From Candidatus Woesearchaeota archaeon (lineage in GTDB: Archaea > Nanobdellota > Nanobdellia > Woesearchaeales > GW2011-AR9), in contig JAGVYE010000003.1 in the NCBI GenBank assembly GCA_018303445.1, positions 2,366 through 66,365 of the forward strand: DNA of 64,000 nucleotides, written 5' to 3'. The notes under the pieces are model-generated. The model saw only the letters and a program-made list of their open reading frames with translations, did not search any database and had not been told where the DNA came from. Position numbers and translations under genes: made by a program. The first letter of the stretch is position 1, and each line of letters begins with the position of its first letter. Below, piece after piece: positions 1 to 62,960 of the stretch.

Positions 1-909
1 GCTAAACTTTGGATTAATGGAACGGATAATAATACTCATGTAAACATTTCCAGCATTAATATTGTCATGCAGGCTGAAGATGATTATCATGTGGGCATAG
101 GCCAAACTTTATCTAGAACCATTGCGGCGCAAAATGAGAATAAAGAGGTCCTCTTAACAACAACCTGGGATGTTCTGTTTAGAAGTTACAATCAACAAGC
201 AAATACGGCGACAATCCAAATAGGAAAACCATGTCCGCCTTTAACGTATAGCTGCACTGATTCTGATCAGGAACGTGATTATGCGGTGCGAGGACAAGTT
301 AGTGCTTTCGGCGTCACGTATCAAGATCGTTGCGTCGGGAATAATGTACTGGAAGGAGTTTGCGTTGGAAAGAGAGTTGGTTTTGAGTCGTATGCTTGTT
401 CAAATGGATGCGGCAATGGGGTTTGTGTAACGATGTCTGGATGCAGCTCTTCCAATAAAGCCGCTTGTAATGCCGCAAATTGCGCCACTCTCGGTCAAGG
501 TGTCTGGGATACAACAGAAGCCATACCCTTATGCAGGGAAGGACGATGTAAAGGGACAGTTTCACAACATGCAGAGTTATGTCCAGGAGATAGGCAAAGT
601 TTGACCGTCGATACTCCGAGAACTGTCGTCGAACGTTGTCGTGGATTTGGAAGTTGCCTATATGTTTGCAGTTCAGGATTTACGTTGCGCAATGGTGATT
701 GCGTCGCTAATGAAGCCTGCGCTGATGGAGAAGATAATGATGATGATGGGCAGATTGATTGCCTGGATGCTGATTGCGCGGGACTAGATGGACCGAGCGG
801 AACGTTATGTTGCCAGCAAACTGCAGATTGCAGAACGGGAGAAACCTGCCGCGGTTCACAATATACTATCACGGGATCTAATGTCACGATAACTCATTTA
901 CCACGATGA
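1..909 (+). CDS. Cys-rich secreted surface protein, 5'-partial (reading frame is open from base 1; ORF-track start at 67 is probably internal)
   Basis: No stop in frame from position 1. Very Cys-rich. Shares the C-N-x-x-N-C-x-T-L-G-Q-G-V-W module and the D-N-D-D-D-G-Q-I-D-C..CCQ..DCR module with the 13860..16331 paralog. Stop overlaps the next start (ATGA). Confidence 0.6.
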   Translation, partial: AKLWINGTDNNTHVNISSINIVMQAEDDYHVGIGQTLSRTIAAQNENKEVLLTTTWDVLFRSYNQQANTATIQIGKPCPPLTYSCTDSDQERDYAVRGQVSAFGVTYQDRCVGNNVLEGVCVGKRVGFESYACSNGCGNGVCVTMSGCSSSNKAACNAANCATLGQGVWDTTEAIPLCREGRCKGTVSQHAELCPGDRQSLTVDTPRTVVERCRGFGSCLYVCSSGFTLRNGDCVANEACADGEDNDDDGQIDCLDADCAGLDGPSGTLCCQQTADCRTGETCRGSQYTITGSNVTITHLPR

Positions 910-2138
910 TGAAAAAAACATTTTACATATTAGTACTGATGCTTTTAATGTCGGCGGTACTGGGCGAGCTTACCTTAACACTTGACAAAAGCCCGCCCCT
1001 TTATGATCGTGGCAGCAACAATAGGGTGGAAGTCAGCGTGAGCTGCGCGGTGGGAAACAGCAGTACCGTGCATATTCGCAATGCGGAAAATCCTTCGCGG
1101 TTAGTGTATATTGCCGTCGGAAATGGAACTTGGATAGTGAATTATAACACCTTCTCAGATTTAAGCGACGGGAGATATGTGCTTGAAGCTTTTTGCCAAG
1201 AAGGTTCAAATGCGACGGCAAACTTTTGCGTTAATGCAAATAATTGTTTGAATATACAAGGGCCGCCGGATCTTCCTCCCACGTGCAGCGATGGAATCAA
1301 GAATGGAAATGAAGGTTGCGATGATGGTGATACAAGCAATGGTGATGGCTGTTCTGCAACGTGTACAGTCGAATCGGGCTGGAGATGTACGGAAAATGCA
1401 GGCGGGCTTTCAACTTGTACTAGAGTAGGTGGCGGAAGAGGCGACGGAAGCGACGGTGGTGGAGACGGAGGCGGCGGTGATACTGGCAGAGATTCATCTT
1501 CTTCTGGATCTGGAAGCGGCCGCCGCAGGTGCACATCTTCCTGGAGTTGCGATGCCTGGGGATTATGCAATGCTACTTTAAAACAGTCGCGCACCTGCAC
1601 TGACGAAAATCAATGTGATCGAAAACCTCGAGTCGAGGCAAGATCTTGCACCAGCTGTCAAGAGTCGTGGGTATGTTCCCTGTGGAGCGAATGCCGTTCC
1701 GGTTCTCAGTATAGAACCTGTGATGATGAGTATAAATGCGGGACTTTTGTTCAAAGGCCGGAGACAGAGAAACGATGCGATGCGCCTACAGTAGGATTCA
1801 CTCCCCGCAAAATTTCAGAACCAGTGGCAGCGCCTCCTTCAACTTTTCCCCCTTTCGGACAAGAACCAGTCACACGACGGCCGCCAGCAGTTCCTCCAAG
1901 TTTCTTAAGCAAATATCAAAAATTTGCAGTTAGGGGCGGCATTGCTCTGGGAATATTAATTATTCTCGTCGTCATTATTGTTTTGTTTATCAAAAGGAAA
2001 GGTAAAGTAAATTCAGAACTCGCGGCTTGGATAGGACAGGCGCGTAGCGGAGGCAAATCCGATACGTATATTCGAAATGCGTTAGTGGATGAGGGATGGA
2101 CAGAAAAAGAGATTGAAAAGGCGTTGCGAAGGAATTAA
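906..2138 (+). CDS. Cys-rich surface protein: signal peptide, one Myxococcus-type CDDGN..DGCS repeat, Gly/Asp-rich linker, 2x W-x-C-x2-W-S-x-C 6-Cys module, Pro-rich stalk, C-terminal TM helix and conserved cytoplasmic tail
   Basis: N-terminal hydrophobic signal (MMKKTFYILVLMLLMSAVLG). Motif GCDDGDTSNGDGCSATC. Two copies of the SW.C..WS.C...Q.R.C.D...CG module. C-terminal hydrophobic stretch GIALGILIILVVIIVLFI, then tail ..SDTYIRNALVDEGWTEKEIEKAL. Confidence 0.75.
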   Translation: MMKKTFYILVLMLLMSAVLGELTLTLDKSPPLYDRGSNNRVEVSVSCAVGNSSTVHIRNAENPSRLVYIAVGNGTWIVNYNTFSDLSDGRYVLEAFCQEGSNATANFCVNANNCLNIQGPPDLPPTCSDGIKNGNEGCDDGDTSNGDGCSATCTVESGWRCTENAGGLSTCTRVGGGRGDGSDGGGDGGGGDTGRDSSSSGSGSGRRRCTSSWSCDAWGLCNATLKQSRTCTDENQCDRKPRVEARSCTSCQESWVCSLWSECRSGSQYRTCDDEYKCGTFVQRPETEKRCDAPTVGFTPRKISEPVAAPPSTFPPFGQEPVTRRPPAVPPSFLSKYQKFAVRGGIALGILIILVVIIVLFIKRKGKVNSELAAWIGQARSGGKSDTYIRNALVDEGWTEKEIEKALRRN

Positions 2139-2212
2139 TTTCTATCTTGCTGAAAAGAGTGCGTATTAAATCACCGCAAGATTTATATATTGTTGTATGA
2201 TTAATCATACAT

Positions 2213-2803: not shown

Positions 2804-3275
2804 AATAAAATGGTGTGCTGGAAAGAAAGAAGGATTAAGTTTAATTGAGCCAAATTCAGATCTTACCAACGCTTACATTAAGAAAGCTGAAGAAGCTTTG
2901 GAATCTATGAGAGTGAATATTATCAAAGATTGGAAAATTTCAACGGCATACTATACAATTTACTTTTCGCTTTATGCCCTTCTTACAAAAATAGGGGTAA
3001 AATGTGAAATTCACTCTTGCACTATTGAATTCGCAAAAAAATTCCTTAAAGATTATTTTGAAGAGTCTGAGTTAAATTTTACTGAAGATTCCTTAAAAGC
3101 AAGAATTGATTCTCAATATTATATTGATAGAACCGTTCCAGATGAGCAATACCATAAGATGATGCGAAAAACTCCGGAATTCTTGGTTAAGTGCAAATCG
3201 ATTCTTATTAAATTGAATGAGAAGAAGATTAACGAGATAAGAGGCAAATTTCAAATAGCGAGTAACAGAAAATGA
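2796..3275 (+). CDS. HEPN-domain protein (HepT-like toxin partner of the MNT). Start moved to the internal ATG at 2796 (MDKIKW...), which overlaps the MNT stop
   Basis: All-alpha ~160 aa protein directly coupled to the MNT gene (ATGGATAA overlap). R-x(4-8)-H-like stretch (DRTVPDEQYH) near the C-terminus. Classic MNT-HEPN gene order. Confidence 0.55.
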   Translation: MDKIKWCAGKKEGLSLIEPNSDLTNAYIKKAEEALESMRVNIIKDWKISTAYYTIYFSLYALLTKIGVKCEIHSCTIEFAKKFLKDYFEESELNFTEDSLKARIDSQYYIDRTVPDEQYHKMMRKTPEFLVKCKSILIKLNEKKINEIRGKFQIASNRK

Positions 3276-3298
3276 AACGAAAGATGCTTTTCTCTTTA

Positions 3299-3451
3299 GC
3301 GAATGAATGACGGCGGGCCGTTCGCTCAGTGGTTTTCTGGCGGTAATCTCAATATAAAAATAAAATTTTTTATCAGAAGAAAACCAACTGTCAACAGATG
3401 CATAGCAATAGCAGTTCCTCGCAAGCATCTTGGCCTTGCCGTCATTCATGG
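3299..3451. repeat. Intergenic element flanked by a 12-bp perfect inverted repeat (atgaatgacggc / gccgtcattcat) with a nested imperfect IR (cagtggttttctgg / cagaagaaaaccaactg). Rod-like ~150-nt structure
   Basis: Direct reading of the sequence at 3301-3314 vs 3438-3451, and 3328-3341 vs 3375-3391. No ORF inside. Confidence 0.5.
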
Positions 3452-3721
3452 AGTTGAATAGTATCAGATTTAAGAGGTTGTTGCGAAACTCTTCATTAGT
3501 GCTGGTGAGAGGCTTGTTCCGCCTCTCAACTTCGCTCCGCTCAAGTCGAATTGCTGAACTCTACAAGGTTAGCTTCATTGGCAAATTATACCCCAGCACA
3601 GACTTTCGCAACAACCTCTAAATTTGGCATTATTGAAAAGTTCTCGTTTCACTTGTGGAGCACCAGCTACGACCTAGACTATTTCTTTGAAGGCTGACGT
3701 TCCCCGGATGGGGTAACCCCC

Positions 3722-3789
3722 CTTGTCAGCTTTATTTCATACTTCAAGTGGTCTCCGCAAGTGGTGCTCCAAACACTTTTCAATAACGC
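3722..3789 (+). repeat. 68-bp conserved intergenic element, copy A. 64/68 identical to copy B at 55765..55832. Ends 50 nt upstream of a + strand start codon
   Basis: cttgtcagctttatttcatacttcaagtggtctccgcaagtggtgctccaaacacttttcaataacgc. Contains a TTTATTT TATA-like box. A partial inverted partner lies at 3630-3667. Confidence 0.6.
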
Positions 3790-3838
3790 CCTAAATTTAG
3801 GAAAAATATATAAAGATTATTTTCTTGCTATCGTAGTG

Positions 3839-6724: not shown

Positions 6725-7132
6725 AAAGGTATGTATTAAGTCTGGGGCTTTAACATCAACCCGTGGGCCTTCTCGCCAATTAAGATCCAGCAAAAAGGGA
6801 ATTCATGAAATGTGAAAAATATCACATTTCAGTACTGAAAATAAATCTCTGTTTATTTTCATGTTCCAAAAGGAATTTTTGCCTTTGAGTTGCAACATCG
6901 CGTTCTCTAGGTTCGTGAAAATTGCTAAAATATCAAAAATCACTCAGAAAGTGAAATGTGCCCACATAGTTTACGACAAAAATAAATTATAAAGCAAGGT
7001 TATAAACTCTCGTTAAGGATTAATTCAGTTTCAACCAATAATCCATAGCTTATTTATGTCGCCAATTAACAAAAGAAAAAGTATATAAATGGCAAGATTT
7101 TCTCTTAAAGTTGAAAAAAAAGGATGAATTAG

Positions 7133-8572
7133 ATGAAGTTAAATGAGGTTAGTGCAAGTAAGAGTAAACTATCTCGCTCTGTTATTTCTGGCTCTCAGAT
7201 TTCTTCTTTCAAGAAAACAGGGCTGATAGTAATGATAGCAGTTGTGATTTTAGCCATAGGGTTCTCGTTTCTGTTTCCAGCTTCTAAGAAGGGACTGGCA
7301 GGGCGGGCATTCGGGGAAACTGTTGGTGGACCATCAATACCACTCACAAGTTGTGGTCTAATCACTGCGCCAGGAGTCTATACTCTTAACACTGTTCTTT
7401 CTGTCGCTGATTCCGCGTTATCAAATAATGCCTGCGTGACAATTACAGTTGATAACGTCGGCATTCGCTGCACTGCTGGAGGAGGATTTACGTTCACAGG
7501 AAGCAATCCGCTAGCAAAAGGAGTGCGTATCATGAATGTGAATGGTGTGGAAGGTGTTAAGGTGACAGGATGTCAGTTTCTTAGTTTTCCACAGCGCAGC
7601 ATAGAAGTTGAAGGCAGCAGCGGCATTGTTCTTAATGATAATGTCATTATACAATCGGGAAGTATGGGGCAGGGTATTTCTCTTTCAGCTTCACAACGTT
7701 TGTTAGTTGATAAAAATAAAATTTCTGCTCCTATAGGTCTGGCGATGGATAGTACCACGGAAAGTGTTGTCAGCAGGAACATTATTCGCGCGGCACAGAC
7801 AGGAATCTCCGTTGGGCAAGGAAGCAGCATGAATTCTTTTTTTGAGAACACTGTTTCTGGCAGGCAAGCAGGAATAACCGTTGCGGCAACGGATAAAAAT
7901 GATTTTTATCTTAATGTTATCTCCGGAAGCCCGGTAGGGATATCTTTTAGCGGCTCGACAAATACTGGTTTCGGCCAGAATACTTTATGCGGGAATTTTC
8001 AAAATGGGGTGGCCTGCACAAGTACTCCTCCAACTACCTTTAGCGGCGGCAGTGGTAATTTTCTGACGGGAAATAGTTGTTCTAGTTTAGTAGGGGCTTC
8101 TTTTAGTGATTGTCCCAATCCTGCGGTTACTCTTTGCGGCAATAGTTGGGTTGATAATGGCGAACAATGTGATGATGGAAATACTGTCGGAAATGACGGC
8201 TGTTCAAGCACGTGTCAGAATGAACAACCTTCCTTCTCTTGCGCCACTCCTGCCCCAAATAATTCTGATCCTTGCGCTAATCGCGCTAATCCAACTACTG
8301 CCAACACTCCCAATGTTCTGTTTGCTACTTGCCCAACAACTAATGTTCCTGCTTGCAGTTATAGTTGCCGAAGTAATTTTCGATTAAATGCAGGAGTGTG
8401 TGAAGCTGTTCCCGCAGGTTTACCGGCTTGCCATGTACTTAAACAGAGGTGTGATACAAATGAAAAAATTATTATTGATGTTGGCATTATTGCTCCTTCC
8501 TTTTGCTTTAGCAGATATTTCCATAACTTGTTCTCCATCCTCAGTTCAACCAGGCGAAGCTGTGAATTGTAA
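7133..8572 (+). CDS. Membrane-anchored surface protein with a right-handed parallel beta-helix (PbH1-type repeats) and one Myxococcus-type Cys-rich repeat
   Basis: N-terminal TM (LIVMIAVVILAIGFSFLF). Repeating G-x-x-V/I-x-x-N-x-I/V units (NVIIQSG.., NIIRAAQTGISV.., NVISGSPVGISF..). CDDGNTVGNDGCSSTCQ motif. The 3' end overlaps the next gene by ~110 nt in another frame. Confidence 0.65.
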   Translation: MKLNEVSASKSKLSRSVISGSQISSFKKTGLIVMIAVVILAIGFSFLFPASKKGLAGRAFGETVGGPSIPLTSCGLITAPGVYTLNTVLSVADSALSNNACVTITVDNVGIRCTAGGGFTFTGSNPLAKGVRIMNVNGVEGVKVTGCQFLSFPQRSIEVEGSSGIVLNDNVIIQSGSMGQGISLSASQRLLVDKNKISAPIGLAMDSTTESVVSRNIIRAAQTGISVGQGSSMNSFFENTVSGRQAGITVAATDKNDFYLNVISGSPVGISFSGSTNTGFGQNTLCGNFQNGVACTSTPPTTFSGGSGNFLTGNSCSSLVGASFSDCPNPAVTLCGNSWVDNGEQCDDGNTVGNDGCSSTCQNEQPSFSCATPAPNNSDPCANRANPTTANTPNVLFATCPTTNVPACSYSCRSNFRLNAGVCEAVPAGLPACHVLKQRCDTNEKIIIDVGIIAPSFCFSRYFHNLFSILSSTRRSCEL

Positions 8573-9947
8573 CGCAGCTACTACGACTACGTTAAATAAT
8601 GTTGGCAGGTTAAGCTTTACAGTTAATCCCGGAACCTTATTTGAGATTACTAGCACATCTGGCCTTGCAGGAGTGACTTTTAATCCCGCTAATGGCATTG
8701 GAACCTATACCAATGCTCAAGGCATTAATTTTAATGCTAATGCGGTATTATTTACAATTAATTTACGCGCTAAAACTGGAGTTCAAGGCAGCGAATCGAT
8801 TTCATTTAGCCGATTTATCGTAAGAGATCTTACTCCCGCAGATATTAACTTTGGCACTGTAAGAAATTCGAATATGATCACTGTTGGTTCTGCTGACCGT
8901 GCTTGTTCAGAAGCAGATTGGTGTGGTCCATGGGGCACTTGTCCTGCTGGAACTCAAACTAGAACTTGTAACACGCCTGCAGGTGCAGCTTGTACTAGCG
9001 GTGTGACTGCTGAACCAGCAGAAACGCAATCTTGCACTCCAAGTTGCGCTGGAGTTGCGGATGGCGCAGCTTGTACTTTAAGCGGCGCTGCCGGCACTTG
9101 TCAAAGTGGTGGTTGTCAGACAGTACCTGGAACTTGTACTGCTCGCGCCACAACTTGTAATGTAGCTGGTGTTGATTGTCCTAATGGTCCAACTGGAACT
9201 CCTGTTCGTGTTAACCGAATAATTTGCCCTAGCGAAACTCCTTGTAATCCGACAACTGGATTATGTCAAGCAGTTGCATGTACTGCTCGCGCCACAACTT
9301 GTATTCAGGCAGGTGTTAGTTGCCCCTCTGGTTCATCTGGTGCTGCTGTTACAGTAGCTCAAGTAGTTTGCAGTGATGCAACTCCTGTTTGTAATACTAT
9401 AACTGGTTTATGTGAAGCCGCTCCTGCCTGTATTGACGCAGATAATGATAGGTATTACCCTGGAGAGTTTAGTACTCAATGCTTTATAACTGGCCAACCT
9501 TTGGGTTTTGGAGATTGCAATGATAATAATCCTCTCATTCATCCTAGCGATAATGAATTGATTTGTAATGATGGATTAGATAATGATTGCAATGGTTTCA
9601 CTGATTGCGCAGATGTCTTGGCTTGCGTTCGTTTAGCTTGTGTAACCGGCGGAGTTGCCGGAACTTGCCAAAATAATGGTATTTGTCAACCGCCTGCTGG
9701 TCGTGGAGCAACAAGTTGCACTGAAGGTCAATCCATAACTGGAACACCGTCTTGTAATTGTGATGCAAAAGTTATTTCCGGAGCAACTTATCAGCGTCAT
9801 GAAATTGGCGGACAATGCACCCTTCTGCTGGGCAAAATTAAAGCCGAATTTGAATCATCGCGTAATGCTTTGCAAAAAATGGTGAATATGGCGCGGTTGC
9901 TGCGTTGTTACATTTCCAGTACCAGAGCAACTTGCATGGAACAATAA
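8460..9947 (+). CDS. Secreted Cys-rich protein: signal peptide, N-terminal Ig-like (possibly cohesin-like) domain, W-C-W module, 2x A-T-C-x-x-A-G-V-x-C-P...V-C-S..T-P-x-C-N-x-x-T-G-L-C-E repeats, conserved GQCTLLL..IK C-terminus
   Basis: Start moved to MKKLLLMLALLLLPFALA (signal peptide). Paralogous in its N- and C-terminal segments to 12269..13822. Confidence 0.65.
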   Translation: MKKLLLMLALLLLPFALADISITCSPSSVQPGEAVNCNAATTTTLNNVGRLSFTVNPGTLFEITSTSGLAGVTFNPANGIGTYTNAQGINFNANAVLFTINLRAKTGVQGSESISFSRFIVRDLTPADINFGTVRNSNMITVGSADRACSEADWCGPWGTCPAGTQTRTCNTPAGAACTSGVTAEPAETQSCTPSCAGVADGAACTLSGAAGTCQSGGCQTVPGTCTARATTCNVAGVDCPNGPTGTPVRVNRIICPSETPCNPTTGLCQAVACTARATTCIQAGVSCPSGSSGAAVTVAQVVCSDATPVCNTITGLCEAAPACIDADNDRYYPGEFSTQCFITGQPLGFGDCNDNNPLIHPSDNELICNDGLDNDCNGFTDCADVLACVRLACVTGGVAGTCQNNGICQPPAGRGATSCTEGQSITGTPSCNCDAKVISGATYQRHEIGGQCTLLLGKIKAEFESSRNALQKMVNMARLLRCYISSTRATCMEQ

Positions 9948-9951
9948 GATC

Positions 9952-12240
9952 ATGAAAACTACTGCTGAAGATAATCTGGACCATTCTAAAATAAAGAATG
10001 AAAAGAAAGGGCAGGCAAATCAGAAATTAGTAGTAATCAGTATCTTTGCAGTAGTATTATTAGGAGCGCTGATAGTGTTATATTTCTTTACGGACACTTT
10101 TGTGGGAAGAGCGTTTCAAACTGGAATTAGGAATTCTGCCGGATTGGATTTCAGCGGCGGAATAGAAAATCTGCCTTTAAATGACGAGGGAACTTATCCT
10201 CTTAAAGCTAATGTTGATCAAGCCGTGAGAATCAATGCGATTAATTTTGTGATGAAGTATGATTCTGCCAAGTTATCAGTTAATAATTGCCAGCAGCGAG
10301 TTCAGCAAACTTTAGATAGTTATTTTAATTATAATCTCATTAATGATTTATCCTTAATACGAGAAGTTTCCTGTGATCCAGCAGGAAAAATAACGGTTAA
10401 TTATGTTTTTGCCTGTGATCCAACCAACAATTGCAATAATTTACCGGCTCCTGCTGCCTCCGGAGATATTTTCTTGGCAATATTTCTTTTTACTGGCATT
10501 GCGGCAGGAACTGCGGACGTTTATTTTGAATCATTAGACATTTATGATGTTAATTCACTGCCTGGAACTACGGCAGTTTCATTAAATTCTCCGACGAGAA
10601 CTAGCCCGGATAGAATTACTGTACGTCAGACTACGGAAACTGTTGATCAATCACTAGCTTGCACTAGTTCTAATGACTGTTCGACAGGACAAACATGCAG
10701 CGGCGGTATTTGTATTTCACCCCGTTGCGGCAATGGCGTACTTGAAGTAATAGAACAGTGCGATGATGGAAATACTGCTGGAGATGACGGCTGTTCTTCA
10801 ACCTGTCAAATTTATGAAGCAGGATGGCTATGTAATACACCCGGTCAGCTCTGCCAAAAATTATGCGGCAATGGGGTTGTTGAAGTTGCAGCTAGTGAAT
10901 GGTGTGATGATGGAAATAATGCCAATGGCGATGGCTGCACTCGTACTTGTCAAATGGAGAACGGATATGTTTGTCCAAGAAGAGGCGGAGTATGTATTTT
11001 AAGTACACAGGCTTGCGGCGACGGAGTAGTGCAAGTTGGTGAATATTGCGATGATGGAAATGCCGCTTCAAGTGATGGCTGCGCAGCTTGTCAAATTGAA
11101 AATGGATATACTTGCAGTGGCAGCCCTTCTGCTTGTGTTCGTATGGGGGAGACCACTTATATAAATTTTTGTGGCGATGGAATAATCCAAGACAATGGCG
11201 GGAATGGAATTGCCGGAGATATCGATGATGAACAATGTGATGACGGCAATCGAAATGATAATGATGCTTGCACTAATATTTGCCGCACTGCCTTTTGCGG
11301 TGATGGAGTTGTCAGAGCTGGAACAGAACAATGCGATGACGGCAATCGAAATGATAATGACGCTTGCACTAATATTTGCCGCACTGCCTTTTGCGGCGAT
11401 GGAGTTGTCAGAGCTGGAACAGAACAATGTGATGACGGCAATATGGTAAATACTGATGGCTGCACCACTCAATGTCGTACAAATGTTTGCGGTGATGGAA
11501 TTGTTTGGATAAGAACAGAATATTGCGATGATGGCAATCTAGTGAATGACGATGGTTGTTCAAGTACCTGTCAAATTGAGTTAATAGGCCGCTGCGGTGA
11601 TGGAACAGTTAACCCTAATGAACAATGTGACGATGGGAATCAAAATGATAATGACGCTTGCACTAATATTTGTCGCACTGCCTTTTGCGGCGATGGAGTT
11701 GTCAGAGCTGGAACAGAACAATGTGATGACAGCAATCCTGCAAATTATGATGATTGTACCAATGAATGTCGTATTGCCGTTTGCGGTGATGGAATTACCA
11801 GAGCTGGAACAGAACAATGTGATGATAGGAATACTATTACTGAAATATGTGCTTATGGTCAACGATCGTGTACTGTCTGTAATAATCAATGTCAATCTGT
11901 TGCTGGCGCAGCGACGTATTGTGGTGACGGAATTATACAAACGGGTGAACAGTGCGATGATGGAAATGCAGTTCTTGGTGATGGATGTTCAGCAACGTGC
12001 AGCGTAGAATCTAGTGGTGCTGGGTTATTGGGCGATGTAAATGGCGATGAGGTTGTAGATTTAGCTGATGCTATTGATGTTGCCAGATTTGATTTAGGTA
12101 TTTCGACTAGTCTAACATTCAATGCAGCGCGGGGAGATGTGACCTGTAATAATGGAGCAGTAGACATTGCTGATGCTATACTTATTGCCAGGGTTGATTT
12201 AGGAATTCCTGGATTTAATATCCCTAATTCCTGTTCATGA
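9952..12240 (+). CDS. Scaffoldin-like surface protein: N-terminal TM anchor, Ig/cohesin-like domain, ~14 Myxococcus-type Cys-rich repeats (C-x-DGN-x6-C-x3-C), C-terminal dockerin
   Basis: TM: VVISIFAVVLLGALIVLYFF. Repeats: CDDGNxxxxDxC(T/S)xxC..CGDG. C-terminal dockerin: GDVNGDEVVDLADAIDVARFDLG + GDVTCNNGAVDIADAILIARVDLG. Confidence 0.75.
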   Translation: MKTTAEDNLDHSKIKNEKKGQANQKLVVISIFAVVLLGALIVLYFFTDTFVGRAFQTGIRNSAGLDFSGGIENLPLNDEGTYPLKANVDQAVRINAINFVMKYDSAKLSVNNCQQRVQQTLDSYFNYNLINDLSLIREVSCDPAGKITVNYVFACDPTNNCNNLPAPAASGDIFLAIFLFTGIAAGTADVYFESLDIYDVNSLPGTTAVSLNSPTRTSPDRITVRQTTETVDQSLACTSSNDCSTGQTCSGGICISPRCGNGVLEVIEQCDDGNTAGDDGCSSTCQIYEAGWLCNTPGQLCQKLCGNGVVEVAASEWCDDGNNANGDGCTRTCQMENGYVCPRRGGVCILSTQACGDGVVQVGEYCDDGNAASSDGCAACQIENGYTCSGSPSACVRMGETTYINFCGDGIIQDNGGNGIAGDIDDEQCDDGNRNDNDACTNICRTAFCGDGVVRAGTEQCDDGNRNDNDACTNICRTAFCGDGVVRAGTEQCDDGNMVNTDGCTTQCRTNVCGDGIVWIRTEYCDDGNLVNDDGCSSTCQIELIGRCGDGTVNPNEQCDDGNQNDNDACTNICRTAFCGDGVVRAGTEQCDDSNPANYDDCTNECRIAVCGDGITRAGTEQCDDRNTITEICAYGQRSCTVCNNQCQSVAGAATYCGDGIIQTGEQCDDGNAVLGDGCSATCSVESSGAGLLGDVNGDEVVDLADAIDVARFDLGISTSLTFNAARGDVTCNNGAVDIADAILIARVDLGIPGFNIPNSCS
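11233..11814 (+). repeat. Tandem 96-bp (32-codon) repeats inside 9952..12240. Three copies are almost identical at DNA level (11233-11328, 11329-11424, 11623-11718) and others are diverged
   Basis: Repeat unit caatgtgatgacggcaatcgaaatgataatga(t/c)gcttgcactaatatttgccgcactgccttttgcgg(t/c)gatggagttgtcagagctggaacagaa. Confidence 0.85.
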
Positions 12241-12268
12241 AAAGGTGTTCATGAAAAGGTGAAATAAA

Positions 12269-13822
12269 ATGGTGCAAAGAAAATTTAAATCTTGGATGAT
12301 CATTGGTTTATTCATTTTAATGCTTCCCATAGCGGCCGCGGTTAATTTTAATGTAAATTGTCCTGCTTCATCTCTTTCTGGTCAAAGTTTTACCTGTCAA
12401 GTAAATATGCCGACGCCTCTGGCATCAGGTCTTTCATCATTGAGTTTTACTGCTAATGCTGGCGGAGCAACTATTGCCGTAACTTTTCCCCAAGGCACCA
12501 CGGTCAGCAGTGGCGGCACGTATGGTTTTTTTACTCCTACGCCAGTAACTAATTCTAATCCTTTAGCCTCCGTGCAAATAACTCCTATTACTGGCCAAAC
12601 CTCTGTAACATTACAATTGACTGGTGTGCGAGGACGATTGGGAGATAATACTTTACTTCTTCCTGCAAATCCAGCGCCAAATAATATTGCATTTAATAGT
12701 CCAACAGTAACTATTGGCTCTACTTGTACGTCAACAGGAAATGCAGAAACTAGTTGTAATGGAATAGATGATGATTGTGATGGCAGTGTTGATGAAAATT
12801 TCGTTGGAACGTCTACCACTTGCGGAGTAGGAGTCTGCGTTGCAACTGGATTGACAACCTGTCCGAGAGCTTCAGGTCAAACAACTGTAGGCAATAGCTG
12901 TACTCCTAGAACTCCAATAGCTGAAGTTTGCACTGACAGTTTAGATAATGATTGCGATGGAACGGTTAATGAGGGTTGTACTGTTTGTGTTCCTCGTGAT
13001 CCCACTGCCTGCACAACTGGTGTTGAATGTCCAAGCGGGAATAGTCTTCCAGCTTTAGGCTGTTCTAATGGTCAAAGTTGTCAGGGAAGTCCGGCTAGTT
13101 GTCAACCAACAGCAGCAGGAAATAATCTGCCGGTAGCAGAAGATGATACTTTTACCGTTGTTTTAGGAGCTGGTGCTGGCAGTCTAGAAACTACTTTTAA
13201 TGTTTTAACTAATGATCGAGATCCAGATAATGATGCTTTACGTATTACCAGCACCACTCAACCGGCTAATGGTTTAGTTTCTTTGCCATCAAACCGAAGA
13301 ATTTCTTATCGCAGCAACGCTGGATTTACAGGGACAGATTCATTTACTTACACTATCAGCGATGGCCGCGGCGGAACAGCTACGGCTACGGTAACGGTGA
13401 CAGTGAGTTCTTCTTTAACTTGCACTTTTCGCGCCGCAACTTGCAGTCAAGCAGGTGTTAATTGTCCTGATGGCTCTGGCGGCGAACCTGTTAGTATTGA
13501 CCGGGTAGTTTGCAGCGGTGTAACTCCTTTTTGTAATACTAAAACTGGCTTATGTGAAACTGGCTGTGCGGAAGGAACCTTGTTAGCAGATCCACCTGTG
13601 TGTACTTGTGTTGCTCCTTTGCAGAATGTTGATGGTGTTTGTAAATGTCCTCCTTCAGCAGGAAGGGCTCAGCATCTGGTGAGAGGGCAATGCACACTTT
13701 TACTTACAGAAATTAAAGATTCTTTAGAAAACGATCAGCAATATAGCGGAATAATGCAGAAAGTTTCCCGTATCGCTGAAGCGTTGAAGAATTTCCTGAG
13801 GGCAGTTCATTTAATTAATTAA
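12269..13822 (+). CDS. Secreted Cys-rich protein, paralog of 8460..9947: signal peptide, Ig/cohesin-like N-domain, Cys-rich region, C-terminal conserved GQCTLLLTEIK helix
   Basis: Signal: WMIIGLFILMLPIAAA. N-terminus NVNCPASSLSGQSFTCQVN parallels SITCSPSSVQPGEAVNC in the paralog. Shares the CTFRAATCSQAGVNCPDG...VVCSGVTPFCNTKTGLCE module. Confidence 0.65.
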   Translation: MVQRKFKSWMIIGLFILMLPIAAAVNFNVNCPASSLSGQSFTCQVNMPTPLASGLSSLSFTANAGGATIAVTFPQGTTVSSGGTYGFFTPTPVTNSNPLASVQITPITGQTSVTLQLTGVRGRLGDNTLLLPANPAPNNIAFNSPTVTIGSTCTSTGNAETSCNGIDDDCDGSVDENFVGTSTTCGVGVCVATGLTTCPRASGQTTVGNSCTPRTPIAEVCTDSLDNDCDGTVNEGCTVCVPRDPTACTTGVECPSGNSLPALGCSNGQSCQGSPASCQPTAAGNNLPVAEDDTFTVVLGAGAGSLETTFNVLTNDRDPDNDALRITSTTQPANGLVSLPSNRRISYRSNAGFTGTDSFTYTISDGRGGTATATVTVTVSSSLTCTFRAATCSQAGVNCPDGSGGEPVSIDRVVCSGVTPFCNTKTGLCETGCAEGTLLADPPVCTCVAPLQNVDGVCKCPPSAGRAQHLVRGQCTLLLTEIKDSLENDQQYSGIMQKVSRIAEALKNFLRAVHLIN

Positions 13823-13859
13823 TGGGGTTAGTTTATGAGGGTGAAGATGAGGTTAGTTT

Positions 13860-16331
13860 ATGAAAGTGAAGAGAATAAAAAAAGGCAAGCATAGTGTTTT
13901 ACGGTACAAGTCATTGCCTCCTCACACCAATGAAGCAGTTCCTGTTACACATCTGGGAGAAGTAAGCAAACCTTTTATTATTGTTGCCATTACTATTGCT
14001 GCTATTGTTTTGTTAGCGGTATTCTTAATGTTTAAAGATCAGATTGTTGGAAAAGCGTTTTTTGTGGCTGGTGTAGTAGATACAGCAGGCATCGCAAATC
14101 CTGGTTCAGTTTTGGAGAATACGCCTTTTTCTTTGCTGGTTAGAGCTAACATTGGAACGAAAGAAACAACAGGCATAGAATTTGAATTTCCTTTGCCTAC
14201 AGGATTACGTTGCCGAGTGGCAAATCCAATTGAGAATTTGTTGGGATGGAATGCCCAAAATGGGGCGCTGCTAGAGGAAGCAACGTGCGTGAATAACGTG
14301 GTGCATTTCCGTTATCTTACCGTGAATGGGCAAGAAGCGAAGAGAGGAGAGTTTGATATTGCACGAATTCATGTTGAAGGCGCAGCGGCAGGAACATACA
14401 CTTCAACTTTCCGTCTTTTTAATATTATTAATCTTGCTACTCCTCAAGGCGATATCATTAGCAATGGGTTGGTTGATCCTCTCGTTGTACGACAAGTGGG
14501 ATTCTGTCAGGATAATAGCCAATGCCAGCAAGGAGTATGTAATACGCAAACGAATCGATGTGCGCAATGTGTTGCTGATGCGCAATGCAGTGGAACTACG
14601 CCGATTTGTAATACCCAAACTAACCTGTGTGAAGCTCGTGCGCCTGCCTGTGGCAATCAGCAAATTGATGTAACAGAACAATGCGATGATGGTAATACTG
14701 CAAATGGAGATGGTTGTTCAAGCACTTGTCAAAGAGAAGCACCTCCAGAAATAACTTATCGCGTCAATTGTCCTCAAGATAATATTTCTATAGGTCAAAC
14801 AACAACGTGTGAAATTATTTTAAATCAGGCCGTAACGGAAACATACGGAGAACAATTTACGATTTCCGCTCCTGGATTTACGGCAGCAACTCCATTTATT
14901 GAAGGTGTTACAGGTATTACTGCATCTTCGGCAGGAATTGGAGGAACAACCCTTCTCGTTGAAAGTGATCACTTAACGAGCCGAGGTCAAGCGGCAGGTG
15001 TCGTGGCTCGGTTTACACTTCGCGCGGGAAATGCGGGAGGAATATACACAGTCTCTTTGAGCAACTTAGTCTTGGGAAGTTCTGCTACTTCTGATATGAT
15101 AACAATTTTAGCAGCGGAAAGAGAATGCAGCGCAACTAATAAAGCAGCATGCCAAGATCGAACATCATGCGAAGCTACACTTGTCGGCGGATATTGGTAT
15201 AATAATCAATGCAATACCCAACCGGAATGCCGCGTCAATAATTTAGCTGGCTGTCGAACACAAGCACAGTGTGAAGCGACAGCTATTGGCGGCCGATGGA
15301 ATGCGGCAACAAGCACCTGCAGTGCAGCGCCAACATGCAGCCCAACTAATCTGGCTGTGTGCACACAAACAAACTGTGTTACTGTTGGTCAAGGAGTTTG
15401 GAATACAACGGCAAGCAGCTGTGATACAGCAGTTGAAATTTGTAATGATGGACAAGATAATGATCAAGATACTCAAGTAGATTGCGTCGATACGGAATGC
15501 AGAGGAAGAGCCGGTGCCAATGGCGCTCTCTGTTGCCAAGCAGTAGCTGATTGTCGAGAAGGACAAGAGTGTCAAGCAAATCAGTGTAGAACGGTAACAA
15601 TCCAAACAACAACAACTTCTTCGTCTGGCGGAGGCGGTGGCGGAGGAGGCGGAGGCGGTGGTTGCGTTTCCAATTGGCAATGTGATCTTTGGAGTTACTG
15701 TAACTCTACTTTGCAGAAATCGCGAACTTGCATAGATTTGCGAAAATGTATCCAAAAGCCAAAATTAGAAGTTCAATCCTGTCCTGCTTGTGAAGAATCA
15801 TGGTTGTGTACGTCGTGGAGTCAATGTTTTGGCAGTACAAAAACGAGAACGTGTACTGATGAGCATAAATGTGGAACGTTGCGGCTAAAACCATCAGAGC
15901 AGCAGCAATGCACACTTCCAAGTTCGCAATTGCCTGTGCAACAGGTACAGCAGCCTCAACAGTTTTATGTGCCTCCCCCTTCAGTTCCATATCAAGCTCC
16001 ACAAGTACAAAAGCCAAGCGTCTTTAGGCAATATCAAACGTGGTTTATCAGTGGGGCTTCTCTCTTACTTTTAGTTATAATCTTAGGCCTGGTCTGGCGT
16101 TTAACTCATCGTCCTCAGCAACTGGGTTATAATATCGGTGAATTGAAAGAATGGATTAAACAAGAACAAGCAATGGGAACTTCAAACGAAGACATTAAAG
16201 AAATCCTCTCTGATAAAACGGGATGGACAAAAGAAGAAATTGAAAAGGCCTTTGAAAGTTTAGGAAGCGCGCTCACAGAAGAACAACTTCAATCTTCAGA
16301 AGAACAAATCATGGAAATAGGGGGGAAATAA
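13860..16331 (+). CDS. Giant membrane-anchored surface protein: N-terminal signal anchor, Ig-like domain, Myxococcus-type Cys-rich repeats, poly-Gly linker, 2x W-C-W 6-Cys module, Gln/Pro-rich stalk, C-terminal TM and conserved cytoplasmic tail
   Basis: TM1: FIIVAITIAAIVLLAVFLMF. Motif CDDGNTANGDGCSSTCQ. Linker SSSGGGGGGGGGGGG. Modules CVSNWQCDLWSYC.. and CEESWLCTSWSQC... TM2: ISGASLLLLVIILGLVW. Tail: NEDIKEILSDKTGWTKEEIEKAFESLG. Confidence 0.75.
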   Translation: MKVKRIKKGKHSVLRYKSLPPHTNEAVPVTHLGEVSKPFIIVAITIAAIVLLAVFLMFKDQIVGKAFFVAGVVDTAGIANPGSVLENTPFSLLVRANIGTKETTGIEFEFPLPTGLRCRVANPIENLLGWNAQNGALLEEATCVNNVVHFRYLTVNGQEAKRGEFDIARIHVEGAAAGTYTSTFRLFNIINLATPQGDIISNGLVDPLVVRQVGFCQDNSQCQQGVCNTQTNRCAQCVADAQCSGTTPICNTQTNLCEARAPACGNQQIDVTEQCDDGNTANGDGCSSTCQREAPPEITYRVNCPQDNISIGQTTTCEIILNQAVTETYGEQFTISAPGFTAATPFIEGVTGITASSAGIGGTTLLVESDHLTSRGQAAGVVARFTLRAGNAGGIYTVSLSNLVLGSSATSDMITILAAERECSATNKAACQDRTSCEATLVGGYWYNNQCNTQPECRVNNLAGCRTQAQCEATAIGGRWNAATSTCSAAPTCSPTNLAVCTQTNCVTVGQGVWNTTASSCDTAVEICNDGQDNDQDTQVDCVDTECRGRAGANGALCCQAVADCREGQECQANQCRTVTIQTTTTSSSGGGGGGGGGGGGCVSNWQCDLWSYCNSTLQKSRTCIDLRKCIQKPKLEVQSCPACEESWLCTSWSQCFGSTKTRTCTDEHKCGTLRLKPSEQQQCTLPSSQLPVQQVQQPQQFYVPPPSVPYQAPQVQKPSVFRQYQTWFISGASLLLLVIILGLVWRLTHRPQQLGYNIGELKEWIKQEQAMGTSNEDIKEILSDKTGWTKEEIEKAFESLGSALTEEQLQSSEEQIMEIGGK

Positions 16332-18431: not shown

Positions 18432-20009
18432 ATGAGAAATGTCAATAAAGAAAAAGTATTGGTAGCTCTAGCTATTATTATTCTTATCGCAGCTTTTCTA
18501 CTAACTTACATCCCTAAAGGGCCGTTGTTTGGCAAGGCCGTAAGTACAGGAATGACGCATGCCATCTCCATCCAAAATTTTGCTTTCTCACAACTGGAAG
18601 TTACTATTAATGTTGGGGACACAGTCACGTGGACAAATAATGACCAAGCTACACATATGGTAGTTTCGAGAGGAAGCGGACCTTTAGATTCTGGTACGAT
18701 GGTAAACGGGCAAAGTTATAGTTATACTTTTGTTGCTTCTGGCACCTATGAATTCTTTTGTTCCCTTCATCCATTTATTATGATCCCTGGAAGGGTTATA
18801 GTTATTAATGCCACCCCTGCCATTCCGCCGACTCCGCCTTCGCCTCCGCTAGACTCGCTGCCTCCCCAACCTTCGCCACCCCCTCCTCCGCCAGCGGCAA
18901 CGCCGCCTGTGATAGAGATGCCTTCATTAAACATAACTCTTGTCACTCCTTCTCACTCAGGTGCAGTTCAGAATGGAACAGTGAATTTCACGTACCTTTT
19001 TCAGGGAATAACTCCCAGCCAATGTATGTTATATGGAAATTTTAGCGGCACGTGGCAGCCAGGTCTTGCTCAAACAGTAGCTGTTAATGGGAGTTATACA
19101 TTTACTTCTAATCTTTTGAATGGAAGTTACCTTTGGAATGTTCTCTGCAGCAGCAGTTCAACGCAAGGGCTGGTAAGTAAATGGGGAAGCAGGAATTACA
19201 CTTTAACTGTGGCTGTACCAGCAAGTTCTCTTTCCGTCCCTAATATTTCTCAACAAAATCAAATCATGGTTGCTCTTCTTACTCCTGCTGATCGTGCCGC
19301 GTTGCAAAATGAAAGCGTTTCTTTCTCTTTTTCTTTTACAGGACCAACTCAAGGAAGTTGTCAGCTTTATGGCGATTTTAATGGCAGTTGGAGTATGAAT
19401 ACCAGCCTGGCTTCTCTTAATAATGGAACCTCTCGTCTCACTTTTAATGTTGGTAATGGACGTTATCTCTGGAACGTACATTGTGTTGATAGTGCTAATC
19501 TTTCTAATGAAGATTGGAGTGATTATAACTGGAGTGTTAGTGTTTCCCAATTGTCTGTGAATGTCTCGAGTCAAACAAATGCCACAAATATAACTTCTTG
19601 TTTAGAAGCCTGGAGTTGTACAGGGTGGTCTTTATGTGAATTTGGCAGGCAAACACGAATATGCACTGACCAAAATAATTGTGGAACCTTTTTACAAAGA
19701 CCGCCTCAGACCCAAGTTTGTGTTCAGCAGCAGGCAGCAGCAACAACAACTTCTCCAGCAAGTGGAAGTAATTTTCCTTCTACGAACACTGCAGCACAAC
19801 CAACACGGGCTCCTCCTTCCTTTCCTGCTCCTTCTCTTTCAGATACTGAAAAGAAACCTTTGGTGCAGCAGCCAAAAGAAACAACACAGAAAAAAAGTAC
19901 TCTTCTCTTCCTTATCCTTGGCACAACTGTTGCTTTGGTGGGTTTCATCCTCTACCGTAGGCACGTTGAAGTCATATGTGGCAAAAGACAGGATGAGAGG
20001 AGTCAATGA
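18432..20009 (+). CDS. Membrane-anchored surface protein with N-terminal type-1 copper cupredoxin domain, Pro-rich linker, 2x Ig-like N-glycosylated repeats, W-C-W module, C-terminal TM. Apparent +1 frameshift before the conserved cytoplasmic tail, which continues in frame +1 to 20082
   Basis: Cupredoxin ligands: H in ATHMVV, then C..H..M in FFCSLHPFIM. PPTPPSPPLDSLPPQPSPPPPPP linker. Repeated NGSYLWNVLC / NGRYLWNVHC. CLEAWSCTGWSLC module. TM LLFLILGTTVALVGFILY. Tail homolog (VNDTAIRQNLAQAGWNKNDIDEAMKK) is encoded in the other frame (ORF 19636..20082). Confidence 0.7.
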   Translation: MRNVNKEKVLVALAIIILIAAFLLTYIPKGPLFGKAVSTGMTHAISIQNFAFSQLEVTINVGDTVTWTNNDQATHMVVSRGSGPLDSGTMVNGQSYSYTFVASGTYEFFCSLHPFIMIPGRVIVINATPAIPPTPPSPPLDSLPPQPSPPPPPPAATPPVIEMPSLNITLVTPSHSGAVQNGTVNFTYLFQGITPSQCMLYGNFSGTWQPGLAQTVAVNGSYTFTSNLLNGSYLWNVLCSSSSTQGLVSKWGSRNYTLTVAVPASSLSVPNISQQNQIMVALLTPADRAALQNESVSFSFSFTGPTQGSCQLYGDFNGSWSMNTSLASLNNGTSRLTFNVGNGRYLWNVHCVDSANLSNEDWSDYNWSVSVSQLSVNVSSQTNATNITSCLEAWSCTGWSLCEFGRQTRICTDQNNCGTFLQRPPQTQVCVQQQAAATTTSPASGSNFPSTNTAAQPTRAPPSFPAPSLSDTEKKPLVQQPKETTQKKSTLLFLILGTTVALVGFILYRRHVEVICGKRQDERSQ

Positions 20010-20145
20010 TACTGCCATTCGCCAAAATTTGGCACAGGCAGGATGGAATAAGAATGATATTGATGAAGCGATGAAAAAATAGATTTAAGTTTTCTTGTTG
20101 TAGGTGACGTTACTTTATCAGTATCAAAAAAAGCTCTATAGAAAA

Positions 20146-20546: not shown

Positions 20547-20936
20547 ATGAAAGCTATCAAAATATTTGCTTTTTCCCTGGGTTTGATCTTTCTTTTCCTT
20601 GCCGGATGCCATGAAAATTTCGTGTCTTTAATTGGATATGCTGTTGCTCCTCTTCCTCCACAAAAAGGTACGTTTCCTCAAGTTTTTGTTTCTTGCCCAA
20701 GCTCATTTACAAATCAAGGCTGTATTTGGGGAAATGAAGCTATAATTAATTTTCGTCCCTTATTCCAAGTATGGTCCGTACCGGAAAATGAACTTGTTGG
20801 AGCTAGGATGATCTTTGGCAAACCAGAATGCATCTATCAAAAGAAAGGAGGAACGAATGTTTATCGTTTGCAAGGAAAGGTTATACAAGGCGGTAATTGT
20901 GTAGCCCAAGAGAGGGGATTTTGGTGTGAACGATAG
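20547..20936 (+). CDS. Small secreted or lipobox-type Cys-containing hypothetical protein
   Basis: Signal peptide ending in FLAGC (lipobox-like). 129 aa, with several Cys. Confidence 0.45.
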   Translation: MKAIKIFAFSLGLIFLFLAGCHENFVSLIGYAVAPLPPQKGTFPQVFVSCPSSFTNQGCIWGNEAIINFRPLFQVWSVPENELVGARMIFGKPECIYQKKGGTNVYRLQGKVIQGGNCVAQERGFWCER

Positions 20937-23049: not shown

Positions 23050-24117
23050 ATGGAATTTATCGTCGAAAAAGCGCTGGACAATGTTTCAGCATACGATGGA
23101 CTTGACATGAGTCAAGCAAATATTAAAGTAATAGGTGTGGGTGGAGCCGGAAATAATATGGTTGGTTGGCTCTATAAAAAAGGAATAAAAGGAGCGGAGA
23201 TCATTGCAACAAACACTGATCACCAGCATCTTAACATTACTGGTGCGGATCGTAAGTTTCTTATCGGGAAAGACTGCACACGTGGTTTAGGTTGCGGCGG
23301 ATTTCCAAATAAAGGAGCCGAAGCAGCACAAGAATCTCTTATGCAGATTAAGGAAGCGTTGAAAAGCTCTGACATGGTGTTTGTTTGCGCTGGGATGGGC
23401 GGTGGTACGGGAACTGGAGCAGCTCCTGTTGTCGCTCAAGTAGCAAAAGATACAGGGGCCATTGTTATTGGAACAGTGACGATGCCTTTTAACATCGAAA
23501 GAGCACGCTGTGACAAAGCTGAATTTGGTTTGCAGCAACTCCGACAAGTCTCAGATACAGTTATTGTCATTGATAATAACCGTTTGGTGCAAATTGCCGG
23601 AAACTTGCCAATACAGCAAGCCTTTGCTGTTGCTAATGAACTTATTGCCACAATGATTAAAGGAATTGTGGAAACCATTGCCGTGCCTTCCTTAGTCAAT
23701 CTTGACTACGCTGACGTTAAAGCGATTATGACTAATGGCGGTGTAGCAGCTATCGGCGTAGGAAGTTCAGACACTAATAACCGGGTGGAAGAAGCGGTGA
23801 AAGGGGCTCTCTCTAATCCTCTCCTTGATATTAATTATGAAGGAGCTACCGGAGCTTTGATTCACATTACGGGAGGACCGGACATGACTTTGGATGAAGT
23901 TTCCCGAATTGGCGAATTAGTAACAGAATCGCTGGATGATGATGCTAATGTAATTTGGGGAGCAAGAGTAAGCGATGACATGAAAGGGAAATTAACCGTG
24001 ATGACGATTATTACAGGAGTCAATTCCCCTTGGATCTTAGGGAAAGTAGATCAGAAACGGGCTTCAGAGAGTCGAGCGCATACCTTAAGCAGGGAATTAG
24101 GGATTGAACTCGTATAA
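23050..24117 (+). CDS. ftsZ: Cell division GTPase FtsZ (paralog 1)
   Basis: GVGGAGNN and tubulin signature GMGGGTGTGAAP. NTD and T7-loop present. Confidence 0.9.
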   Translation: MEFIVEKALDNVSAYDGLDMSQANIKVIGVGGAGNNMVGWLYKKGIKGAEIIATNTDHQHLNITGADRKFLIGKDCTRGLGCGGFPNKGAEAAQESLMQIKEALKSSDMVFVCAGMGGGTGTGAAPVVAQVAKDTGAIVIGTVTMPFNIERARCDKAEFGLQQLRQVSDTVIVIDNNRLVQIAGNLPIQQAFAVANELIATMIKGIVETIAVPSLVNLDYADVKAIMTNGGVAAIGVGSSDTNNRVEEAVKGALSNPLLDINYEGATGALIHITGGPDMTLDEVSRIGELVTESLDDDANVIWGARVSDDMKGKLTVMTIITGVNSPWILGKVDQKRASESRAHTLSRELGIELV

Positions 24118-62902: not shown

Positions 62903-62960
62903 TTTTTTATTTACTCTCAGAGTAAGTAAAAGTACTCAGTTAGAGTACATATATGTACCT

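Follow-up and report, generated by a model that had tools for sequence, protein, structure and literature searches.

Architecture and candidate roles of a predicted cupredoxin-headed surface glycoprotein in a Woesearchaeota archaeon

DPANN archaea, including Woesearchaeota, are thought to depend on partner organisms, and their published genomes encode no electron transport chains of their own, so that a blue-copper site on the surface of such a cell is a small puzzle. The case considered here comes from a 64,000-nucleotide (64-kb) stretch of the Candidatus Woesearchaeota archaeon assembly GCA_018303445.1 (contig JAGVYE010000003.1, positions 2,366 to 66,365 of the forward strand), hereinafter the window, which supplies all coordinates given without another source. 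An open reading frame (ORF) of the window appears to encode a cupredoxin carried on a stalk, which raises the questions of whether the domain is what it seems to be, how it is displayed and what it could do. The product is 100% identical to MBS3116092.1 of NCBI, which is recorded as 'hypothetical protein J4421_00695, Candidatus Woesearchaeota archaeon'. The content of the window is archaeal, with a 16S rRNA gene (61335-62902), the start of a 23S rRNA gene and a gene for ribosomal protein S6e located just 5' of the cupredoxin gene. We consider it very probable that the ORF encodes a real cupredoxin-headed surface glycoprotein.

The cupredoxin head

The features of the gene that bear on the identity of the head are as follows:

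18432..20009, + strand: ORF of 525 aa, the same as NCBI MBS3116092.1
18552..18809, + strand: cupredoxin (type-1 copper) domain, residues 41-126, from Pfam PF00127, PDB matches, AlphaFold2 and Foldseek
18654..18656, + strand: His75, predicted N-terminal copper ligand, aligned to His53 of amicyanin by HMMER and in a 42-sequence alignment
18759..18782, + strand: ligand loop Cys110-Ser-Leu-His113-Pro-Phe-Ile-Met117, C-x2-H-x3-M, from alignments and the model

A first-pass annotation, made from the nucleotide sequence, had placed a cupredoxin domain at 18550-18810 (residues ~40-126), and Pfam, PDB matches, structural model and fold comparison all agree with this assignment. The comparison with the Pfam Copper-bind model (PF00127), which that annotation had proposed as a check, yields 36.6 bits against a gathering score of 21.2 (E=6.2e-9) and aligns residues 44-124 with profile positions 6-98 of 99. 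Among PDB sequences, the best match is amicyanin (3e-11, phmmer), followed by a NirK-linked cupredoxin, plastocyanins and pseudoazurins. In the full-length AlphaFold2 model, which was built with 41 aligned relatives (a 42-sequence MAFFT alignment that includes the window protein), the predicted local distance difference test score (pLDDT) is 90-98 across residues 41-130, the ligand loop included. Foldseek matches the head to 5fc9, amicyanins and plastocyanins with probability 1.00, template modelling scores (TMt) of 0.69-0.83 and root mean square deviations (rmsd) of 1.4-3 A, and the modelled head has the Greek-key beta-sandwich fold of the family.

The predicted ligands lie in two short segments, ATHMVV (residues 73-78) and FFCSLHPFIM (residues 108-117); besides the His75 codon, these include the codons of Cys110 (18759-18761), His113 (18768-18770) and Met117 (18780-18782). 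His75, Cys110 and His113 are invariant in the 42-sequence alignment, and the model places the ligand loop between the last two beta strands (residues 104-109 and 120-125). The C-x2-H-x2-M spacing originally given for this loop was a miscount, the actual spacing being C-x2-H-x3-M. This longer spacing is plausible because azurin likewise has three residues between its His and Met ligands. More generally, a C-x2-H-x(2-4)-M loop is kept in 64 of 83 related domains (x2 in 60, x3 in two and x4 in two), which implies that metal binding is under selection. A convergence of the four ligands on a single metal position has indirect support in the high pLDDT and the low rmsd to holo-cupredoxins. As judged from sequence and model, the head is a type-1-copper-type cupredoxin with all four ligand types, and it probably binds copper.

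The relationship to characterized cupredoxins is clear at the level of the superfamily and does not extend to membership in any of the named families compared. Amicyanin of Paracoccus (PDB 1aac, 2qdv and others) is ~33-35% identical to the head and shares with it the Greek-key fold, the ligand types and the Cys-x2 spacing followed by His-Pro-Phe, a part of the amicyanin hydrophobic patch that is kept in the head. However, the amicyanin loop is C-x2-H-x2-M, with two residues instead of three before the Met, and amicyanin is a small soluble periplasmic protein, whereas the head sits on what is predicted to be a membrane glycoprotein of 569 aa in its intact form. Assignment to amicyanins (the TIGR02657 equivalog, 48.2 bits against a cut-off of 110.2), halocyanins (TIGR03102, 37.1 against 93.8) or plastocyanins (TIGR02656, 33 against 87.85) was rejected, and there are no methylamine dehydrogenase (mau) genes among the scanned ORFs of the window. 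The top fold match to the head is Nmar_1307 of Nitrosopumilus (PDB 5fc9; TMt 0.78, rmsd 1.9 A). Tethered cupredoxins are normal in archaea and in Gram-positive-like envelopes; Nmar_1307, halocyanin and sulfocyanin are small proteins with an N-terminal helix or lipid and a short linker, from organisms with respiratory chains. Like the window protein, these three are archaeal extracytoplasmic proteins in which a single cupredoxin is held at the membrane, but the Ig stalk and the C-terminal anchor of the window protein are absent from them.

Stalk, anchors and the intact allele

Downstream of the head, the following elements were delineated:

18810..18917, + strand: Pro-rich linker, residues 127-162 (36 aa), 50% Pro, pLDDT <50 (composition and model)
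18918..19217, + strand: Ig-like repeat R1, residues 163-262, with 7 sequons and 2 conserved Cys (repeat alignment)
19254..19547, + strand: Ig-like repeat R2, residues 275-372, with 6 sequons and 2 conserved Cys (model and fold matches)
19596..19724, + strand: six-cysteine (6-Cys) 'c' module, residues 389-431, C-x3-W-x-C-x2-W-S-x-C...R-x-C-x-D-x3-C-G...C
19725..19889, + strand: juxtamembrane spacer rich in Ser, Thr, Pro and Gln, residues 432-486 (55 aa), pLDDT <50
19890..19955, + strand: C-terminal transmembrane (TM) helix, shortened by a deletion in the window allele (model, and comparison with the intact protein P0209 described below)

The poly-Pro linker and the two sequon-rich repeats that the first-pass annotation had described C-terminal to the head are thus present, and a membrane anchor is to be added to them. 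An AlphaFold2 model of R2, built with 35 homologous repeats, has a pLDDT of 94.2 and is an Ig-like/E-set sandwich by fold comparison; one copy of the repeat in a related protein matches Pfam Big_7 (4.7e-7). A profile of R1/R2-type repeats has no match among PDB sequences, and neither the Ig-like repeat nor the 6-Cys module, which would be disulfide-knotted, matches any Pfam or NCBIfam model. With the modelled Ig-like fold of R2 and the predicted C-terminal TM helix, the protein appears to have the layout of an Ig-repeat stalk with an envelope anchor.

The protein contains 18 N-x-S/T sequons, 17 of which fall within residues 163-388, a segment that includes a sequon-rich connector between R2 and the 6-Cys module. 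The sequon density of this segment is 7.5 per 100 aa compared to 0.5 per 100 aa in window ORFs of at least 200 aa. The counts exceed those of shuffled sequences for R1 (reached in 0 of 2000 shuffles) and R2 (p ~0.025), as well as for the connector. In the earlier description of the stalk as heavily N-glycosylated, the sequon enrichment stands, and it suggests that the stalk is N-glycosylated; no match to STT3/AglB was found among the window ORFs scanned. The head itself contains 0 sequons against 17 in the stalk, which fits an exposed contact surface on a shielded stalk.

A stalk-only exhaustive search of cluster representatives gave 2142 matches, and the domain architectures were read in the best 150. 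The Ig-like repeat occurs in up to 18 copies in giant proteins of 2-7 thousand residues, and most of the best 150 among the 2142 matches carry tandem 6-Cys modules, in arrays of up to 12. Given this number of cluster representatives and these many-copy arrays, both stalk modules are standard building blocks of archaeal surface proteins, and the 6-Cys module is an abundant, undescribed archaeal surface module. In two of the proteins scanned, the 6-Cys module occurs together with CARDB. By contrast with the modules, the full architecture (cupredoxin, two repeats, 6-Cys module, TM helix and tail) is represented among the best 150 of 2142 by just three cluster representatives (50%-identity clusters), namely the window protein and its orthologs P0002 and P0074.

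Within the window, the cassette of 6-Cys module(s), TM helix and cytoplasmic tail is shared with the products of ORFs 906..2138 and 13860..16331, which carry other ectodomains. About eight genes in a row in the region 67-16331 (+ strand) specify large proteins that are secreted or on the surface; DUF4215 (up to 10 repeats), LamG, Big_9/cadherin-like domains and a NosD-like beta-helix occur in them, as do Cys motifs of the MopE type. In the same region, the 185-nt overlap between ORFs 7133..8572 and 8388..9947 may be the sign of a further gene with a frameshift. The commonness of the stalk modules in archaeal surface proteins, the shared C-terminal cassette and the neighbouring run of secreted proteins together justify speaking of a surface-protein family. 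The narrower term adhesin, originally applied to this family, finds no support: no Pfam or NCBIfam model of an adhesin or lectin matches the protein or its isolated modules, R1 and R2 are Ig-like/E-set domains of a generic type, and the label would be an analogy with the window paralogs.

The position of the head relative to the membrane depends on the fate of the N-terminus, for which a single feature is relevant:

18432..18539, + strand: N-terminal region, residues 1-36, with a basic n-region, an 18-aa hydrophobic helix and G-K-A (model and ortholog alignment)

By its sequence, this region would be either a cleaved Sec signal peptide or an uncleaved signal anchor. The tripeptide G34-K35-A36 obeys the -3/-1 rule and is unchanged in all three orthologs, although the surrounding signal region is merely 29-43% identical, and the VGKA motif recurs in the window paralog 13860..16331, the ectodomain of which is unrelated. 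These observations suggest a processing site, and the succession of Pro linker, Ig domains and C-terminal TM helix is the usual layout of type I stalked proteins; cleavage of a signal peptide after G-K-A36 therefore seems to us the probable outcome. A broader role of G-K-A as the processing motif of the whole class of stalk-module proteins was rejected: among 111 such proteins with an N-terminal hydrophobic segment, it is found in the 3 orthologs only.

The cupredoxin would form the free outer end of a stalked type I protein only after cleavage of the N-terminal peptide. If the N-terminal helix stays in place, the cupredoxin would lie at the membrane, with the stalk looping back to the second TM helix, and would not be the outermost part of the protein. 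The hydrophobic segment of 18 aa is compatible with such a doubly anchored topology, as is the helix spanning residues 4-25 in the AlphaFold2 model; furthermore, the putative cleavage site lies ~10 residues past the hydrophobic segment, a distance that would make for a long c-region. The closest small relatives of the head are tethered N-terminally, by a lipobox or a TM helix followed by a linker, which suggests that an N-terminal anchor is ancestral, and a comparable arrangement can be seen in sulfocyanin and CuA-type proteins. The conserved G-K-A and the type I layout speak against retention of the helix, and we regard double anchoring as a possibility of less than even weight.

At the other end of the protein, the window departs from other available sequences:

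19941..19942, + strand: breakpoint at which 59 nt of the common allele are missing (DNA alignment with contigs L012, L013 and L014)
19942..20082, + strand: conserved cytoplasmic tail of ~38 aa (…LKSYVAKDRMRGVNDTAIRQNLAQAGWNKNDIDEAMKK, followed by the stop codon), stranded in the +1 frame of the window

The contigs L012 (4449-4720), L013 and L014 come from independent assemblies and have the same sequence as the window apart from 59 nt; their loss from the window shortens the TM helix and throws the downstream sequence out of frame. In the 90%-identity cluster of the window protein, P0209 has 569 aa and was recovered on 17 contigs, which derive from several samples of JGI and ENA; its sequence matches the window protein exactly through residue 501 and continues into a longer TM helix and the tail. 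Because the window lacks 59 nt that are found in otherwise identical contigs, the 525-aa ORF is a truncated allele or an assembly artefact, and the normal product has 569 aa. A 1-nt frameshift near 19965 was considered and rejected, the DNA alignment showing a 59-nt deletion at 19941/19942.

The tail is in frame in P0209, P0002 and P0074, with the ortholog consensus …Y[IV]xxDRARGVxDxAIxxxLLxxGWxxxDVxxAM[KR]K. A common pattern (…G.s…I…L…GW….I..A…) unites the tails of three paralogous surface proteins, including those of 906..2138 and 13860..16331, the ectodomains of which differ. Comparison with described domains gave no match, and only weak similarities of a three-helix type were seen (E ~0.03 or higher). 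A single-pass protein that has a conserved 38-aa tail in the intact allele and in the orthologs could, in principle, act as a redox sensor, with the oxidation state of the copper site being signalled through the TM helix to the cytoplasm. We consider this role highly improbable. The tail is shared by paralogs with unrelated heads, which makes it look like a general-purpose element for anchoring or sorting, and the window allele is devoid of it; it matches no signalling domain, and the long flexible linkers seem unsuited to the relay of a conformational signal.

Orthologs, related proteins and genomic context

A search with an ortholog profile combined with a scan of 185,579 GTDB species genomes detected no ortholog with the full architecture beyond P0002, and P0074 was recovered by the cluster-representative search alone. 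The architecture had been called unusual, which is correct for the exact combination of domains, confined to three clusters, and incorrect for cupredoxins on extracellular multidomain proteins in general: metagenomic proteins often combine cupredoxins with PKD, CARDB, YHYH, FG-GAP, fn3 or beta-helix domains. In the literature that was searched on blue-copper proteins of DPANN, Woesearchaeota and Parcubacteria, this architecture is not described, the DPANN work there being concerned with CuA/NosZ-like proteins. What is new here is the specific architecture within a DPANN lineage, the cupredoxin family itself being well known.

The head of the window protein is 62% identical to that of P0002 and 52% identical to that of P0074, whereas the respective values are 46-53% and 29-33% for the Ig repeats; for the 6-Cys module, the identities are 74% and 56%. 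P0002 carries a duplicated head, and both copies have full ligand sets. The better conservation of the head relative to the Ig stalk, along with the duplication in P0002, suggests that the head is under selection.

Several groups of proteins related to the head help to place it. Small tethered cupredoxins of 127-203 aa are encoded in L007 (Micrarchaeota), L008 (archaeon) and L010 (Yonathbacteria, of the Candidate Phyla Radiation), that is, in similarly reduced lineages poor in electron transport components. Their domains are 41-45% identical to the head, all have the C-x2-H-x2-M loop, and the cupredoxin is located C-terminal to a lipobox or TM helix, with a low-complexity tether that is Pro/Thr-rich in the archaeal proteins. 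Unlike the window protein, they lack Ig repeats, the 6-Cys module and a C-terminal anchor. The small N-anchored form is likely ancestral, and the Woesearchaeal gene likely originated by fusion of such a cupredoxin to the stalk-anchor cassette. P0003-P0006, which are encoded outside the window, belong to the same subfamily as the head and combine 6-7 tandem cupredoxins, Pro-rich linkers and a C-terminal TM helix in 700-900 aa, but have no Ig or 6-Cys stalk; the first domain is always copper-less, with Cys replaced by Asp. To our knowledge, multi-cupredoxin arrays of this kind have not been described.

In NirK and in multicopper oxidases with a fused C-terminal cupredoxin (6hbe, 9cck; P0028, P0042), a related domain is employed as a tethered electron-transfer module, the partner being in the same polypeptide; the window protein, in contrast, has no catalytic copper domain. 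Laz of Neisseria, in which the tether is a low-complexity Ala/Pro-rich linker, is a membrane-tethered cupredoxin as well, but it is of the azurin type, bacterial and anchored as a lipoprotein. Laz has been reported to be surface-exposed in N. meningitidis, whereas in N. gonorrhoeae it is not exposed and passes no electrons to AniA (PMC6277709), a case which indicates that exposure and partners are not readable from architecture alone.

All three orthologs are encoded at one syntenic locus. A nitroreductase-family gene is located a few genes downstream in each of them, S6e is upstream in the window and in L001 (the contig of P0074 begins at the gene), and a gene for an IclR-like helix-turn-helix protein is found downstream in L001 and L002. 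Directly 3' of the cupredoxin gene, a 129-aa Cys-rich secreted protein is encoded (20547-20936, + strand), which is also present on the P0209 contigs and at the P0002 locus (L001 2930-3319, 47% identity); it matches no described family and is not annotated at the P0074 locus. The gaps around the cupredoxin gene, 220 nt upstream and >450 nt downstream, argue against an operon. The GTDB records L003, L004, L006 and L011 are metagenome-assembled genomes with genes for the ortholog and for related stalk proteins, and they bear the title 'uncultured Methanosarcinales archaeon'. Their locus has the order S6e, cupredoxin gene, 129-aa ORF and nitroreductase and is syntenic with the Woesearchaeota window, so the Methanosarcinales label looks unreliable.

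The recurrent nitroreductase gene bears on the possibility that the head serves in defence and not in energy metabolism, by buffering or sequestering copper or by passing electrons to detoxify oxidants of the O2-, NO- or peroxide type. Links to copper or oxidant tolerance exist for cupredoxin-like proteins, CopI among them, and for lipid-modified azurin, and an intact site combined with the lack of a respiratory partner within the window would be in line with such a function. Nevertheless, one copper per 569-aa glycoprotein would make an inefficient buffer, the protein has no His/Met-rich copper-trapping tracts, and the nitroreductase is of a cytoplasmic type and belongs to a separate transcription unit, with gaps of >200 nt and opposite-strand genes in between. 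Defence thus appears improbable as the function of the head. Two further candidates for copper metabolism in the window were discarded: the P-type ATPase is a type II enzyme rather than a copper pump, and the 'NosD' and 'MopE' matches of the neighbouring proteins reflect a beta-helix and a Cys-rich motif.

The window contains several other features of potential interest. The gene at 51816-52853 (+ strand) encodes a bacterial-type class I release-factor-like protein with a PCRF domain (9e-9), an RF-1 domain (2e-13) and the GGQ motif (…GPGGQH…); archaea normally use aRF1. A tRNA of 86-88 nt is located in the 16S-23S spacer (62960-63047, + strand); ARAGORN gave no assignment, and its sequence looks like that of tRNA-Ala(UGC), in which a short intron seems to follow the anticodon. 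Finally, two FtsZ paralogues are encoded on the same 64-kb stretch (23050-24117 and 56626-57786, + strand).

Electron carrier or binding module

Under the explanation that we favour, the product is a single-pass type I membrane surface glycoprotein of a Woesearchaeote, in which a signal or anchor helix would be followed by the cupredoxin, the polyproline linker, two Ig-like domains, the 6-Cys module, the spacer, the TM helix and, in the intact allele, the tail. The head would bind one copper ion via His75, Cys110, His113 and Met117 and, tethered on the outer side of the cytoplasmic membrane, carry one electron at a time; with the signal peptide cleaved, its place would be the far end of the stalk. 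Electrons may pass through a hydrophobic patch formed by Leu112, Pro114, Phe115 and Ile116 around the exposed His113, and the partner would not be encoded nearby; a redox protein belonging to a host or adjacent cell could fill this role, as could an oxidant or reductant in solution. The service of related domains as tethered modules on NirK and multicopper oxidases indicates that the subfamily is competent in electron transfer. Taken as a whole, this explanation has, in our view, about an even chance of being correct, and electron transfer as the actual job of the protein is a tentative assignment, slightly short of evenly balanced.

Several observations weigh against this explanation. In both the HMMER and the MAFFT alignments, the Met column of the family falls on Ile116, and Met117 comes one residue later. 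No oxidase, NirK, cytochrome, copper ATPase or pump, or copper chaperone was found among the scanned ORFs of the window. A carrier mounted on two Ig domains is ill suited to returning electrons to the membrane of the cell that bears it. Furthermore, in the head of P0074 (…GYVDESRAGMSG…), which is otherwise well conserved, Asp replaces Cys110 and the second His is gone, with the first His and a Met being kept, and the copper-less 'Y-x-D' form, with Asp in place of Cys, recurs in related proteins, including the first domain of every array examined (P0003-P0006). It follows that the scaffold works without the type-1 site in some lineages, which makes a non-redox scaffold or binding role a serious rival.

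According to this principal functional alternative, the head serves mainly as a rigid Ig-like module for recognition or attachment, on one member of a surface-protein family with variable heads; any copper that it binds would have a structural role, and electron transfer would play no part. Besides the copper-less forms, it is consistent with the binding-type domains (DUF4215, LamG, beta-helix and Big_9) of the cassette-sharing paralogs 906..2138 and 13860..16331 and of the neighbouring proteins, and with the predicted lifestyle of Woesearchaeota, which are partner-dependent and lack an electron transport chain. Against it, the window protein, its 569-aa allele and the two P0002 heads all keep the four ligand types, the retention of the C-x2-H-x(2-4)-M loop in most relatives points to selection for metal binding, and adhesin and lectin models find no match. 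On balance, a pure binding head is a respectable but rather unlikely solution.

Should the head turn out to be a binding module or a tethered cupredoxin of the ordinary kind, the case only adds a new domain architecture to a well-known family. A bolder possibility, which we regard as a long shot, is that the copper head, raised beyond the cell envelope on its stalk, is a contact site at which a DPANN archaeon devoid of an electron transport chain exchanges electrons with the cell of a host or partner, or else with an oxidant outside the cell. Were this the case, it would be a copper-based counterpart of the multihaem-cytochrome conduits in interspecies electron transfer, and the relatives with 2-7 heads on Pro-rich linkers would be 'cupredoxin wires'. 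In any case, the head is a concrete, expressible target of 90 residues. For the biology of Woesearchaeota, a blue-copper site on the surface could be a sign of redox exchange with a host or with the surroundings; alternatively, as the copper-less ortholog suggests, a redox fold may have been recruited as a surface recognition module.

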